Shown: piece by piece, positions 8,740 to 26,406 of the stretch
Layout: every line of letters starts with the position of its first letter
How positions within the stretch are numbered: the stretch's first letter is position 1
DNA from: Fidelibacterota bacterium
GTDB lineage: Bacteria; Fidelibacterota; UBA8477; JABMPR01
NCBI GenBank assembly: GCA_021734325.1
Contig: JAIPJF010000006.1
Span: 35,692 to 99,691 of the forward strand
Direction: 5' to 3'
Length of the DNA: 64,000 bases
Notes under the pieces: generated by a model
Told to the model about the DNA's origin: nothing
The model's database searches: none
What the model saw: the letters and a program-made list of their open reading frames with translations, nothing else
Program-made: the position numbers and the translations under genes

Positions 8740-9906
8740 AATACAGCACTTTTAAAGCCTGGAAAGATCATCATCTTGCTGATCCTGATCCTGGGCGGTT
8801 TTATTTTTACCATCAACAATGCCCTTTCTGCGGCACAATACGATCAGGGAGATATTCCTTTGAATAAAATTCAAGCTTCCCCTCAGCACAAAGATGGGGT
8901 TTTTACCAACCCTCTCCCCTGGAAGGATCGTCCATCCTTTGGCCTGATCCGCAAAATGCTCTTTGGCAAGGAACAGAGAAAGCCGGACCAACCCCTTCCC
9001 CAGAAAATGATCAATCCAGAAAGTTTGGAATCCCCAGATAGTACTTATTTGAACATCACCAACGTTGGTCACTCGTCACTCATTATCAATATGGATGGCT
9101 ATCGCATCCTCACGGATCCAGTCTATGAAGCCAGGATCAGTCCTGTGGGTCCATCCCGCTTTAACAGGGAGATTCCCCTGGATCCGACTGCGCTCCATGA
9201 TATTGATGTGGTCATCATATCCCACAACCACTATGACCACCTGAATAAATATTCCATCCAGACCATCCACCATGAGGTGAAACGATTTGTGGTCCCCCTC
9301 GGTGTTGGCGCACAGCTTGAAAAATGGGGTGTTGCCAGAGAAAAGATTTCTGAGCTGGATTGGTGGGATGAGCTGCCCCTCTTTAATGATTTGACCATCG
9401 TTTCAACCCCGGCACAGCATTTCTCCGGTCGTGGGTTGACGGACCGAAACAAAACACTCTGGGCATCCTATGTCTTAAAAACCAAGGCTCACAATATCTA
9501 TTTCAGTGGTGATTCTGGGTACTTCGAGGGCTTTAAAAAGATCGGTGAAAAATATGGCCCTTTCGATCTGGCATTCCTGGAGTGTGGGGCATACAATCCG
9601 GAATGGGCCTTTGTGCATATGTTTCCTGAGGAAACCGTTCAAGCAGCCCTTGACCTGGGAACCCGATACATGTGGCCCATTCACTGGGGAACGTTCAATC
9701 TGGCCTTTCATGACTGGTTCGATCCCATGAAAAGGGTGAGTATCGCAGCTGAGGCCGAAGGAGTGGCGCTATTAACCCCCATATTCGGACAGATCGTAAA
9801 ATATCCAGAGGAAATGGAGACCAAAAACTGGTGGGTTCCTTTTCTCCCTCAAAATATGGCAAATGATGTAAATTTATCAAAAAAGGAATTGGCACATGGC
9901 AATTAA
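8725..9906 (+). CDS. MBL-fold metallo-hydrolase (RomA/NAPE-PLD-like)
   Basis: VGHSS, LTDP, ISHNHYDHL (HxHxDH), PAQHFSGR, SGDSGY, PIHWGTF motifs; N-terminal TM helix. Confidence 0.9.
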   Translation: MNIHFNTALLKPGKIIILLILILGGFIFTINNALSAAQYDQGDIPLNKIQASPQHKDGVFTNPLPWKDRPSFGLIRKMLFGKEQRKPDQPLPQKMINPESLESPDSTYLNITNVGHSSLIINMDGYRILTDPVYEARISPVGPSRFNREIPLDPTALHDIDVVIISHNHYDHLNKYSIQTIHHEVKRFVVPLGVGAQLEKWGVAREKISELDWWDELPLFNDLTIVSTPAQHFSGRGLTDRNKTLWASYVLKTKAHNIYFSGDSGYFEGFKKIGEKYGPFDLAFLECGAYNPEWAFVHMFPEETVQAALDLGTRYMWPIHWGTFNLAFHDWFDPMKRVSIAAEAEGVALLTPIFGQIVKYPEEMETKNWWVPFLPQNMANDVNLSKKELAHGN

Positions 9907-10573
9907 AGCGATCATTACCGGATCAACAGGCATGGTAGGTGAAGGAGTCCTTCATGAATGCCTGAATCATCCAGATGTGGAATCTGTACTGGTGATCAAC
10001 AGACGATCATGTGGTAAGCTGCATCCGAAATTAACAGAGATCCTCCACAGTGATTTTACTGATTTCTCTGAGATTGAAGAGTTACTGACCGGCTACAATT
10101 CAGCCTACTTGTGCATGGGAACCACCTCTTTTAGGATGAGTGAAAAGGACTACGCCAATATTACCTATGAAATGACGCTGGCCCTGGCGAGGACCCTTGC
10201 CAGGTTGAATCCAGATTTGAGTTTGTGTTACGTTTCCGGCATGGGCTCAGATTCCACTGAAGCAGGGAAACTGATGTGGACCCGAATCAAAGGCAAAACA
10301 GAAAACACTCTCCTGAAGCTGCCCCTAAAGCAGGCATTCATGTTCCGTGCCGGTATCATTCAACCAACCAAGGGGTTGGACAACACCTACTTGATGTATA
10401 AGCTGGGAAATCCAGTTTTACCGCTTCTGAGGAAGCTATTTCCGAAATTATTCTGCTCACTGGAAGAGATCGGTCTGGCGATGATCGAAACATCCCTGAG
10501 TGGATTTGACAAACCAATTGTTGATGTCCTTGATATGGTCACGTTGGCATCAAAAAATAAAGCAAAGGATTAA
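9896..10573 (+). CDS. NAD(P)-binding epimerase/dehydratase-like oxidoreductase (YraR-like)
   Basis: ITGSTGMVG Rossmann motif, CMGTT, YVSGMGSD, KGKTEN. Confidence 0.8.
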   Translation: MAIKAIITGSTGMVGEGVLHECLNHPDVESVLVINRRSCGKLHPKLTEILHSDFTDFSEIEELLTGYNSAYLCMGTTSFRMSEKDYANITYEMTLALARTLARLNPDLSLCYVSGMGSDSTEAGKLMWTRIKGKTENTLLKLPLKQAFMFRAGIIQPTKGLDNTYLMYKLGNPVLPLLRKLFPKLFCSLEEIGLAMIETSLSGFDKPIVDVLDMVTLASKNKAKD

Positions 10574-10577
10574 TCTT

Positions 10578-11480
10578 ATCAGAAAAACAAATTGGACAAC
10601 AGATAACATACCTGATCAAAGCGGTCGGGTGGTCATTATAACCGGTGCCAATAGTGGGATCGGATTTGAGGCTGCGAAAGCCCTGACTGCCAAAAATGCC
10701 CTAGTCATTCTCGCCGTCAGAAATCAGTCCAAGGGTGAAGCGGCCGCCGCTCATATTGCGTCTGAAGTTCCCGGTGCCAAGCTCTCGGTACATATGCTGG
10801 ATGTCGCCAACTTGGCTTCTGTAAAAGCATTTGCAGACAAAATGAAGGCAGATTATAAGCAACTGGATCTCCTGATCAACAATGCCGGGATTATGGTTCC
10901 GCCCTACGGAAAAACGGTGGACGGATTTGAGTCTCAATTCGGCACAAACCACCTGGGGCATTTTACGCTGACTGCACAACTCTATGATCTTTTAAAATCA
11001 ACGTCGAATAGTCGGATCGTGAATGTCAGCAGCAACGCTCACAAAATGGGGAAAATAAATCTGGATGACCTCAATTGGGAGAATCGGAAGTATGTCTCCT
11101 GGACAGCCTATGGAGACAGCAAGATAGCCAATCTGTATTTTACCTACGAGCTTGCTCGGAAAATTCAAGCTGCAGGTCATCATGTCATGGTCACCGCAGC
11201 TCATCCTGGTCTTACCTCCAGCAACCTTGCTAAAGGAGCAGGTATCAGATTTTTTAATTCTTTATTTGCCCAGAGTGGCTCCATGGGAGCGCTTCCCACC
11301 CTGATGGCTGCCACAGACCCTTCAGCAAAAAATGGAGATTATTTCGGACCCTCGAAGCTGTCTGGATGGCGGGGATATCCGAAGCGGGTATTTTCGAACA
11401 AGGCTTCCCATGATACTGATATTGCGGCTCGATTGTGGGAAATATCTCAGGATATGACTCAAGTGAAATTTCAGGTTTAG
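10578..11480 (+). CDS. Short-chain dehydrogenase/reductase (retinol dehydrogenase-like); start codon uncertain, candidate ATC
   Basis: WT..NIPDQSGRVVIITGANSGIG, NNAG, FGTNHLGHF, YGDSK (YxxxK). The frame is open from 10500, but AAAGGA sits 8 nt before ATC 10578. Confidence 0.85.
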   Translation: MRKTNWTTDNIPDQSGRVVIITGANSGIGFEAAKALTAKNALVILAVRNQSKGEAAAAHIASEVPGAKLSVHMLDVANLASVKAFADKMKADYKQLDLLINNAGIMVPPYGKTVDGFESQFGTNHLGHFTLTAQLYDLLKSTSNSRIVNVSSNAHKMGKINLDDLNWENRKYVSWTAYGDSKIANLYFTYELARKIQAAGHHVMVTAAHPGLTSSNLAKGAGIRFFNSLFAQSGSMGALPTLMAATDPSAKNGDYFGPSKLSGWRGYPKRVFSNKASHDTDIAARLWEISQDMTQVKFQV

Positions 11481-11577
11481 CATGGTCTAGAATGCTGTTA
11501 TTTCAGAATCGATTGTAACCATCATGTTCACTTGAGATCAACATGTTTCAGTGCATAATCAAATAGGGGGATAAAAA

Positions 11578-12387
11578 ATGGAAAGTTTGCTAAGCATTCA
11601 CCCTGTCATGCTAGCCCTCTTCGCAGGGCTTTTTACCTGGGGCCTCACAGCACTTGGAGCGGCAGGAGTACTCTTCCATAACAAAAAATCCTTTTCCAAT
11701 ATGGATGGCATGCTGGGGTTTGCCGCTGGTGTCATGATTGCTGCCAGTTTCTGGTCACTTCTGGCGCCTGCTCTGGAAATGGCCGAAGGTCGTTCCCTCC
11801 CTCCCTGGATACCCGTATCTTTAGGATTCCTCAGTGGAGGGGCTGTGCTGTACGGGATTGATAAAATCCTGCCCCATTTGCATCTGGGAGCGCCCATGGA
11901 AGATGCAGAGGGTGTCCCCACTTCCTGGCGACGAACCACCTTACTCATCCTGGCCATTACCCTCCACAACATTCCCGAGGGTCTGGCTGTCGGTGTTGCC
12001 TTTGGCGCGCTGGCGGCAGATATCCCGTCGGCCAGCCTTCAGGGTGCCGTGGTGCTGGCGATAGGTATCGGAATCCAGAATTTTCCTGAAGGTCTGGCTG
12101 TCTCCATGCCTCTGAGGCGCGAGGGTTTCAGCCGCCGTAGAAGCTTTTGGTATGGCCAACTCTCGGGAATGGTTGAACCTGTGGCTGCTGTACTCGGTGC
12201 CATTATTGTTACCACATCAACAGCCATCCTGCCCTTTGCCCTGGCCTTTGCAGCAGGAGCCATGATTTTTGTCGTCGTTGAAGAACTCATCCCGGAGTCC
12301 CAACGATCTGGCAACACTGATCCAGCAACTATCGGAGCCATGTTGGGCTTCACTCTCATGATGGTTTTGGATGTCGCCCTTGGATGA
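11578..12387 (+). CDS. ZIP family divalent metal transporter (ZupT/GufA-like)
   Basis: [58 protein letters not shown]. Confidence 0.92.
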
Positions 12388-26114: not shown

Positions 26115-26264
26115 TTTATCCCTCTACATAAACTTGTATAAATACTTGACTTCTTTTTCAGCAGCTCATCAAGCCGCCCGTTCCTTATTCCTTGCAGCGC
26201 AAACATGCTTTACCCGGTTTCGCTCCCTGCTACGTCGTTGTATCATCAAGCTGCGCTTGATGAT

Positions 26265-26292
26265 AAAAAAAACCCCCGTCAGTTGACGAGGG
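26265..26292 (-). terminator. Attenuator terminator of the aro operon leader
   Basis: Minus strand CCCTCGTC-AACT-GACGGGGG-TTTTTTTT. Confidence 0.88.
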
Positions 26293-26323
26293 TGATTATG
26301 TCTAAATAGCACGACCTAAACCA

Positions 26324-26368
26324 TCACCCTGATCTCGTAAAAAAATAATATGTATATTGCCAATTCAT
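26324..26368 (-). CDS. Aromatic amino acid operon leader peptide MNWQYTYYFFTRSG
   Basis: ATG AAT TGG CAA TAT ACA TAT TAT TTT TTT ACG AGA TCA GGG TGA; 6 of 14 residues are aromatic; directly upstream of the terminator/antiterminator. Confidence 0.88.
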   Translation of the reverse strand: MNWQYTYYFFTRSG

Positions 26369-26378
26369 TTACAGGATA

Positions 26379-26406
26379 AATATAGGTTCATGTTTTAGAG
26401 ATTCAA
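26379..26406 (-). promoter_or_regulatory. Probable sigma70 promoter of the aro leader
   Basis: TTGAAT-16 nt-TATATT, ending 10 nt before the leader ATG. Confidence 0.5.

Follow-up and report, generated by a model that had tools for sequence, protein, structure and literature searches.

What controls the aromatic amino-acid genes on the minus strand of the 64,000-nucleotide stretch analyzed here (hereafter, the window), and which amino acids does that control respond to? The stretch belongs to a metagenome-assembled genome of the Marinimicrobia (Candidatus Neomarinimicrobiota) that is 84% complete, and carries an eight-gene supraoperon preceded by a short leader. From its sequence, we consider it very probable that this leader is a ribosome-mediated (leader-peptide) transcription attenuator of the supraoperon, and its codons indicate that it most likely senses Tyr and Phe. 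A preliminary description of this DNA had gone further, proposing a single attenuator for all three aromatic amino acids. The parts of the leader are given below, with the coordinates of all elements being window positions and all elements lying on the minus strand.

26406-26379, minus strand: sigma-70-type promoter, with TTGAAT at 26406-26401, a spacer of 16 nt and TATATT at 26384-26379, assigned from the sequence and a consensus promoter scan
26368 (ATG) to 26326-26324 (TGA), minus strand: leader peptide upstream open reading frame (uORF), MNWQYTYYFFTRSG followed by the stop, 14 codons with one Trp, three Tyr and two Phe
26356-26354 (Y5), 26350-26339 (Y7-Y8-F9-F10) and possibly 26362-26360 (W3), minus strand: predicted regulatory codons
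26330-26289, minus strand: antiterminator, made up of a lower and an upper helix
26330-26323 with 26296-26289, minus strand: lower antiterminator helix, AGGGUGAU (over the uORF stop) with AUCACCCU, from base pairing
26321-26314 with 26307-26300, minus strand: upper antiterminator helix, GUUUAGGU with AUUUAGAC, from base pairing
26293-26265, minus strand: intrinsic terminator, ACCCTCGTC-AACT-GACGGGGGT and T8 in DNA, ACCCUCGUC-AACU-GACGGGGGU and U8 in RNA

The preliminary description had located the promoter, uORF, antiterminator arms and terminator at these positions on the minus strand, and all were confirmed. The uORF reads ATG AAT TGG CAA TAT ACA TAT TAT TTT TTT ACG AGA TCA GGG TGA. Its ATG lies 10 nt past the -10 hexamer and is not preceded by a Shine-Dalgarno sequence, and the uORF is probably leaderless. 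Tyr and Phe account for 5 of 13 uORF residues, as compared to 8.3% in the proteome. At the DNA level, the arm AGGGTGAT (26330-26323) spans the uORF stop and has a perfect complement, ATCACCCT, at 26296-26289, with five bases (26293-26289) being common to the 5' arm of the terminator and the 3' arm of the antiterminator. The terminator stem comprises 9 bp, of which six are G-C pairs, and is followed by U8; in our scan, it was the strongest terminator-like site within 10 kb. The fold of the leader has a z-score of -3.6, with none of 200 shuffled sequences being as stable. When the whole genome was scanned for a uORF followed by a terminator and a gene, the window leader was the sole convincing aromatic-rich case among 282 candidates. 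One candidate that scored higher, C18:20243-20324 (L102:444-525), with five Trp among 27 codons before a terminator, was rejected, as this frame covers the 3' end of a gene resembling those of pyridoxal phosphate-dependent enzymes, whose final codons are read in the wrong frame, and the terminator is that gene's own. Such mimicry of a trp leader is a caution for uORF-based attenuator scans in general. As a separate observation, the -35 element of the leader promoter overlaps an inverted repeat, ATTCAA (26417-26412)/TTGAAT. The repeat, in the form ATTCAA-N(1-5)-TTGAAT, is also found at loci L019, L028, L029 and L032, while TTCAAAATCTTTGCATGC occupies that position in other congeners and at the trp fusion operon; a repressor that works in addition to attenuation may have its operator here.

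The arrangement contains the features by which leader-peptide attenuators are recognized, namely a short uORF before a biosynthetic operon, enriched in codons for the products of that operon, an intrinsic terminator located past the uORF and ahead of the first structural gene, and an antiterminator that excludes the terminator and whose 5' arm would be covered by a ribosome at the uORF stop. The 1:2 protector (pause) hairpin of the Escherichia coli trp archetype, which is not required for membership in the class, is missing. No uORF segment complementary to AGGGUGAU was found, and the minimum free energy (MFE) structure of the 5' part contains only weak A-U pairing. With nothing in the uORF able to pair with the 5' arm, a protector hairpin cannot form, and read-through should be the default state of a leader that is not translated.

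In the mechanism that we propose, transcription would start a few bases before the uORF ATG, such that a leaderless or near-leaderless mRNA is translated. When charged Tyr-tRNA and Phe-tRNA are plentiful, the ribosome would pass Y5 and Y7-Y8-F9-F10, reach the UGA and cover AGGGUGAU. This would leave ACCCU free to join the terminator hairpin, and RNA polymerase would stop at the U8 tract. When Tyr or Phe is scarce, the ribosome would stall upstream and AGGGUGAU would remain exposed and pair with AUCACCCU once the latter is transcribed, in which case the terminator would be blocked and the eight-gene operon read through. By the same logic, W3 may contribute a weaker response to Trp. Without the terminator 3' arm, the antiterminator folds at -18.1 kcal/mol, and the terminator hairpin at -14.9 kcal/mol. 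To model a stalled ribosome, we masked the mRNA up to the edge of the footprint. With stalls at W3, Y5 or Y7, the antiterminator was the best fold, while a ribosome at the stop codon allowed the terminator only.

For comparison within the genus, we considered the regions upstream of the orthologous gene in 19 congeners (68-77% protein identity) and in one genome of a second genus, and the leader element was present in all of them. R1, a covariance model of the genus leader, finds the element in 21 of 23 genus genomes, with the two misses being genomes of 63% and 72% completeness; the element is also present in genus g3. In all 20 aligned leaders, CTATATT and its 8-10 nt spacing to the ATG are invariant. 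The uORF reading frame is conserved, with a length of 14 codons in 18 of the 20, and the residues Y-Y-(F/Y)-F at codons 7-10 are invariant in all 21 genus leaders. Codons 4-6 and 11-12, on the other hand, vary freely, never to stops, and Tyr codon 8 alternates between the synonymous TAT and TAC. No variation is seen in UCA GGG UGA, the final two codons plus the stop, since this stretch serves as the antiterminator arm. The leader peptide is thus, as judged from these alignments, constrained in composition and not in sequence. Across 20 genomes, 100% of the terminator cells are paired, as are 90% of the antiterminator cells, as compared to 34-50% in slid controls.

These comparisons also bear on a different explanation, according to which the hairpin and U-tract are simply the terminator of the upstream gene (27421-26453), which encodes a protein sorted by the type IX secretion system (T9SS), followed by an ordinary aro promoter, with the uORF being coincidental in AT-rich sequence. 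Indeed, the hairpin lies 160 nt past the stop of that gene on the same strand, and codons for Phe, Ile and Leu arise easily in every frame of T-rich sequence. A conserved promoter, however, separates the upstream gene from the uORF. Moreover, the upstream neighbour differs from genome to genome, being either a T9SS-sorted secreted protein or a divergent gene, with the latter found in many congeners, and the leader remains unchanged; the leader therefore belongs to the aro operon. Frame, length, start and Tyr/Phe content of the uORF are, furthermore, conserved over about 10 families while the nucleotides change, and the antiterminator covaries. We find this explanation barely credible.

Evidence in favor of attenuation extends beyond the genus. 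A weak R1 match in family f19 was found to be a real leader, in which the uORF MATNYYYKFFMNNGLRIRP is followed by GGGUUGAGG...CUUCAACCC, the latter overlapping a terminator, before a standalone pheA. The picture was widened by the pheA upstream regions of f19 and by a second covariance model, R2, which gave 88 matches among 401 sampled Marinimicrobia genomes. Strong R2 matches were obtained in families f14, f15, f19, f29 and f32, and 19 of 20 inspected weaker matches were likewise real leaders, adding families f10, f11, f18 and f23. With both models combined, the element is found in ~110 of the 401 sampled genomes, in at least 10 families (f1 included). It should be noted that some matches (the weak R1 matches L071-L073 and the R2 match L159) are plain terminators and not leaders, and that automatic uORF picking often took upstream in-frame starts within the promoter or the wrong frame, such that those peptides were re-read by hand.

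The pairing arms are clade-specific, namely AGGGUGA/UCACCCU, GGGUUGAGG/CYUCAACCC and GGGGUUUUG/CAAAACCCC, and in every clade the 5' arm coincides with the uORF end, with the other arm overlapping the left arm of the terminator. For the second clade, RNAalifold independently arrives at the antiterminator if the right arm of the terminator is omitted. Among 45 diverse leaders, the antiterminator helices are 87% paired, as compared to 32-53% in slid controls, and contain 42 double-changed cells vs 10.7 in shuffles, a number reached by none of 500, although the inner helix belonged to the alignment model and its counts thus lean to structure; the GGG/CCC helix lay outside the model. In the same leaders, the terminator is 97% paired, with 16 double-changed (compensatory) cells, again reached by none of 500 shuffles. 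The check that the preliminary description had proposed, a search for conserved aromatic-rich uORFs and compensatory stem changes upstream of orthologous operons, was thus run with a positive outcome. The trp/phe/his-type attenuator geometry it had recognized is borne out as well, with the uORF stop lying inside the 5' arm of the antiterminator and the two exclusive folds covarying.

Most leaders start 6-10 nt past the -10 hexamer and have no Shine-Dalgarno sequence, with genus g52 (a AAGGAAAG site, 20 nt past the -10) being an exception; leaderless translation, this distribution suggests, is the normal loading route of these sensors. A GC-rich stem and a tract of U7-U9 are conserved in every leader. 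This is relevant to the idea that the uORF encodes a functional micropeptide or affects only translation of the first gene, without transcription termination. Leader peptides with functions in trans do exist, peTrpL of Sinorhizobium being described as one, and in many relatives the U-tract lies only 8 nt from the trpE start codon. Yet the stem and U-tract are maintained throughout, the sequence of the peptide differs between clades, with aromatic content alone being conserved, and the first gene of the window operon has a GAGGG site of its own and begins 150 nt downstream. We thus regard such a role as very unlikely.

The strongest functional evidence for an attenuator is, from comparison of the sequences, that leader codons track operon content. 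Leaders found directly before trpE contain at least two Trp codons in 31 of 34 cases and one in the other three, while two Trp codons occur in none of 48 leaders before pheA, tyrA/pheA or chorismate mutase/DAHP synthase, all of which contain none or one (Fisher p = 1.6e-19 for Trp-codon count vs operon type, kinship ignored). Both leader types are found within single genera (g38, g40 and g52). In genome G079, the leader MNNMNTKIYYSWYWFFSREGVL precedes trpE, trpG, trpD, trpC, trpF, trpB, trpA, pheA, tyrA, DAHP synthase, aroA and aroE. In related families, clear three-amino-acid leaders (YYSWYWFF) occur with trp genes inside the operon, and pheA-associated leaders resemble point-mutated versions of these (YYSLYRFF vs YYSWYWFF). 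Family f11 has two leaders 6.5 kb apart, of which MKNSLKTWKWYFQVGGSVL (WKWYF) precedes trpEGDCFBA and MKNFNYYYFYFRCKGTIGA (YYYFYF) precedes chorismate mutase, DAHP synthase and aroA.

The same pattern speaks against the view that the leader is a metabolite- or protein-binding RNA switch (a riboswitch, a T-box, or a TRAP- or PyrR-like target) in which the uORF is irrelevant. In favor of such a switch, any effector able to sequester the 5' arm could underlie a choice between terminator and antiterminator, and conservation extends to the upper antiterminator helix. Nonetheless, the conserved information is codon identity, with the positions of Y, F and W shuffling between clades, Trp codons appear exactly where the operon has trp genes, and the arms are separated by a short RNA segment whose sequence varies. 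No Rfam family came near threshold on either leader type: Phe_leader (RF01859) scored 16.6 bits on the window against a cut-off of 55, Trp_leader (RF00513) scored 16.5 bits on a WYW leader against a cut-off of 41, and in the 1 kb around the leader no T-box or riboswitch family was listed even at E up to 10. An RNA switch of this kind is, accordingly, highly improbable.

If the attenuator reading is extended to the whole phylum, one can imagine an undescribed family of leaders that re-tunes its regulatory codons as operons gain and lose genes, with W3 of the window being a working Trp input. We put this forward tentatively and would not call it probable. Were it true, fused trp-phe-tyr-aro operons (at least 12 genes) would carry three-amino-acid leaders, operons from which trp was lost would show W-to-L or W-to-R changes, split operons would have separate W and Y/F leaders, and one leaderless peptide of 14 codons would integrate three charged-tRNA pools over the common shikimate pathway.

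Reading the window leader as an attenuator has some weak points that need to be weighed: At equilibrium MFE, masks at Y8-F10 already favor the terminator (-20.6 vs about -16 kcal/mol), and the two leading bases of the 5' arm would lie under a ribosome stalled at F10. The switch must therefore be kinetic, the antiterminator having the advantage of earlier transcription and hence of earlier folding. Regulatory codons number only four or five and the 1:2 hairpin is missing, such that the switch may have a modest dynamic range. Covariation of the antiterminator within the genus is weak, consisting mostly of one-sided G-U changes with three double-changed cells only, because divergence is low. In one congener (G014, locus L024), an extra T in the run of Phe codons shifts the frame, with the stop then lying 9 nt downstream, into the antiterminator; the shifted peptide is MKRQTSYYFFYALGVMV, and the extra T reflects either natural variation or misassembly of the homopolymer. 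The sister genus g2 (L037, G023) has lost the leader. At L037, a -10-like CTTATATTCA is followed by 31 nt and then the tyrA/pheA ATG, with AGGGTGAT kept directly ahead of the start codon, a pattern that resembles a deletion of uORF, antiterminator and terminator. Finally, we infer the start of transcription, translation of the uORF, stalling and termination from the sequence; what we observe directly are the sequence elements and their conservation, covariation in both of the exclusive folds, and leader codons that match the operon content.

Does the same attenuator also sense Trp, such that W3 is functional and one leader integrates Trp, Tyr and Phe over the common pathway? The window leader contains a single Trp codon, at position 3. 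This TGG is kept unchanged in 15 of 21 genus leaders despite variable neighbours (codons 2 and 4 being K/N and Q/N/H/R, respectively), while in the other six the codon has drifted to CAG, CGG, AGG or AGA (Q or R), as if released from constraint. W3 is present in 9 of 9 trp-positive congeners but in only 6 of 12 trp-negative ones (Fisher p = 0.019, kinship ignored). In addition, a W3 stall leaves the antiterminator free in the masked folds, and related families contain unmistakable W+Y+F leaders. On the other hand, there is one Trp codon here vs two in the trp-controlling leaders of the phylum (31 of 34), W3 is missing from six of 21 congeners and from genus g3, and the association of W3 with trp genes takes no account of kinship, with the genomes lacking W3 belonging largely to one clade. 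Furthermore, Pfam searches of the window's genome, which is incomplete as stated above, found neither trpA nor trpC, and a tblastn search with the TrpA tail found nothing, such that the operon could not relieve a shortage of Trp there. A Trp input is, in our opinion, a real possibility that still falls short of being the expected outcome. The W3 pattern fits a real Trp input where Trp is made and drift elsewhere. Of the three amino acids named in the preliminary description, Tyr and Phe can therefore be retained, given the invariant YY(F/Y)F, while Trp is retained in part, being represented by the one partly conserved codon and its correlation with trp genes.

The distribution of trp genes in the genus is itself uneven. 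Only 9 of 23 genus genomes contain both trpA and trpC, with the searches for the two genes giving concordant results, several genomes of 90-95% completeness lack both, and Trp auxotrophy seems, from gene content, to be common in the genus, even though Phe/Tyr and shikimate genes are kept. Trp-positive congeners carry a separate trpEGDCF fusion, followed by trpB and trpA. In G011, L110:5626-9795 encodes a single TrpE-TrpG-TrpD-TrpC-TrpF polypeptide of 1389 aa, with trpB at 9764-11029 and trpA at 11026-11817. The fusion is unusually complete, with shorter pieces of 775-799 aa found in some congeners. At this trpEGDCF-trpB-trpA locus of G011, the one locus examined for a dedicated trp leader, we found the same type of promoter but neither a W-rich uORF nor a terminator.

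How does the leader compare to known systems? Leaders that respond to several amino acids exist in enterobacteria, where thrL (Thr and Ile) and ilvL (Ile, Leu and Val) are multivalent attenuators. As in the proposed window mechanism, one leader peptide integrates several amino acids of a shared pathway, although the pathways are different, the architecture is the classical one of four segments and the uORF is led by a Shine-Dalgarno sequence. The preliminary description had held that classic leaders sense one amino acid and control terminal-branch operons. This generalization is not borne out, given thr/ilv multivalency and the aroR leader of Corynebacterium, which acts on a DAHP synthase operon. 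As compared to E. coli pheL-pheA and trpL-trpEDCBA, the window leader likewise has a uORF with cognate codons, a stop adjoining the antiterminator 5' arm, exclusive folds and a U-tract, as well as a similar distance from the regulatory codons to the 5' arm. It differs in having neither a 1:2 protector/pause hairpin nor a Shine-Dalgarno sequence, in mixing Tyr/Phe(/Trp) codons instead of presenting a run for a single amino acid, and in preceding the common pathway and not one terminal branch.

A close functional analogy is offered by C. glutamicum aroR (Phe-Tyr-Phe), an experimentally tested leader that attenuates the operon of the DAHP synthase gene aroF (Neshat et al. 2014, as cited in PMC11802643). 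There, read-through rose under Phe limitation, and Tyr supply was reportedly without effect (PMC11802643). Both leaders are short, mix Phe and Tyr codons and precede an operon with the first common shikimate enzyme. The window leader, however, comes from another phylum; its core is YYFF with one additional Trp codon, and seven genes of the pathway are under its control, those for both prephenate enzymes among them. Computationally predicted leaders of a related kind are uORFC-13-1, a Phe/Tyr uORF before a terminator and aroF or shikimate genes (Brewer et al. 2021, PMC8632094), and shikimate-associated F/Y uORFs before a terminator (Stav et al. 2019, PMC6429828, Fig. 6b). These come from Acholeplasma and other genomes outside Marinimicrobia, neither is in Rfam 15, and our comparison is with their descriptions in the relevant parts of the two papers, which report no link between codons and operon and describe no Trp-containing version. 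A literature search for a three-aromatic leader surfaced none, although this search was not exhaustive.

The mechanism is therefore classical, and mixed Phe/Tyr leaders of shikimate genes are already known; what is new is an undescribed Marinimicrobia family. The preliminary description knew of no attenuation in this lineage and, in line with this, our non-exhaustive search found no paper on leader peptides in Marinimicrobia. This is, then, the first evidence found that Marinimicrobia (SAR406) use leader-peptide attenuation; next to nothing is known of gene regulation in this phylum, which is marine, abundant and uncultured. The RNA/leader family, absent from Rfam 15, is present in roughly a quarter of the sampled genomes. 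Because its regulatory codons track operon contents, the wider family is of more interest than the window leader itself. It represents a natural codon-swap experiment, with Trp codons where trp genes are controlled and mostly missing elsewhere, and as such offers unusually direct comparative support for the regulatory-codon principle. In metagenome-assembled genomes, these leaders could help annotate aromatic amino-acid auxotrophy and operon boundaries.

The regulated operon, as assigned by Pfam scans, is as follows.

26114-18154, minus strand: regulated operon of eight genes
26114-24798, minus strand: tyrA/pheA (prephenate dehydrogenase/dehydratase) fusion
24736-23720, minus strand: DAHP synthase, class I-beta with a ferredoxin-like (FXD) domain
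23702-22443, minus strand: aroA
22398-21529, minus strand: aroE
21515-20358, minus strand: aroC
20334-19843, minus strand: aroK
19853-18741, minus strand: aroB
18738-18154, minus strand: MarC-family membrane protein

The genes abut or overlap on the same strand, and the terminator scan found no strong internal terminator in the operon; from the spacing, we infer that the eight genes form one transcript. No dehydroquinase or chorismate mutase gene was found in the window operon, and trp genes are also absent from it. The gene list shows that the operon contains most of the common shikimate pathway together with the enzymes of the Phe and Tyr branches, and control of the common pathway, as claimed in the preliminary description, agrees with this Pfam-based content. 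In f19 genomes without trp in the operon, the leader precedes pheA, tyrA, class II DAHP synthase, aroA, aroE, aroC, aroK, aroB and aroQ, which makes the supraoperon an old feature of the phylum.

Between the terminator and the first gene lies a further element (26264-26211), which has two parts.

26264-26242, minus strand: perfect hairpin, ATCATCAAG/CTTGATGAT, outside the switch
~26238-26211, minus strand: motif ...CGNAGC..GCGAA(A/G)CCGGGTA, second part of the element

The preliminary description had included the perfect hairpin in the attenuator. The hairpin is indeed present, although it is not part of the attenuator. The bipartite element, consisting of a variable perfect hairpin and the motif CCGGC-RNAGC-N-GCGAAGCCGGGUA, lies between attenuator and first gene in about two thirds of the congeners and is missing from about seven. 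It occurs in tandem in two genomes, with three copies at L023 (G008) and two at L030 (G007), and a further copy is found past a tRNA-like 3' end in the window's own genome (C15:~100,150-100,240; L103:440-540). We thus rejected the hairpin as a second regulatory stem, being variable, sometimes absent, in tandem in relatives and copied elsewhere in the genome. The element looks like a small mobile or structured repeat inserted before the first gene.

The operon also varies in the enzymes it contains. At the same operon position, DAHP synthase is of class I-beta with a ferredoxin-like domain in the window's family and of class II in f19 and f11 (L112:1630-2973 and L146:7350-8690, as compared to 24736-23720 in the window). 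This class switch is, as judged from the domain assignments, a non-orthologous replacement inside a conserved operon. In f19 and f11, moreover, pheA and tyrA are separate genes, while the window has a fused tyrA-pheA, in the opposite order.

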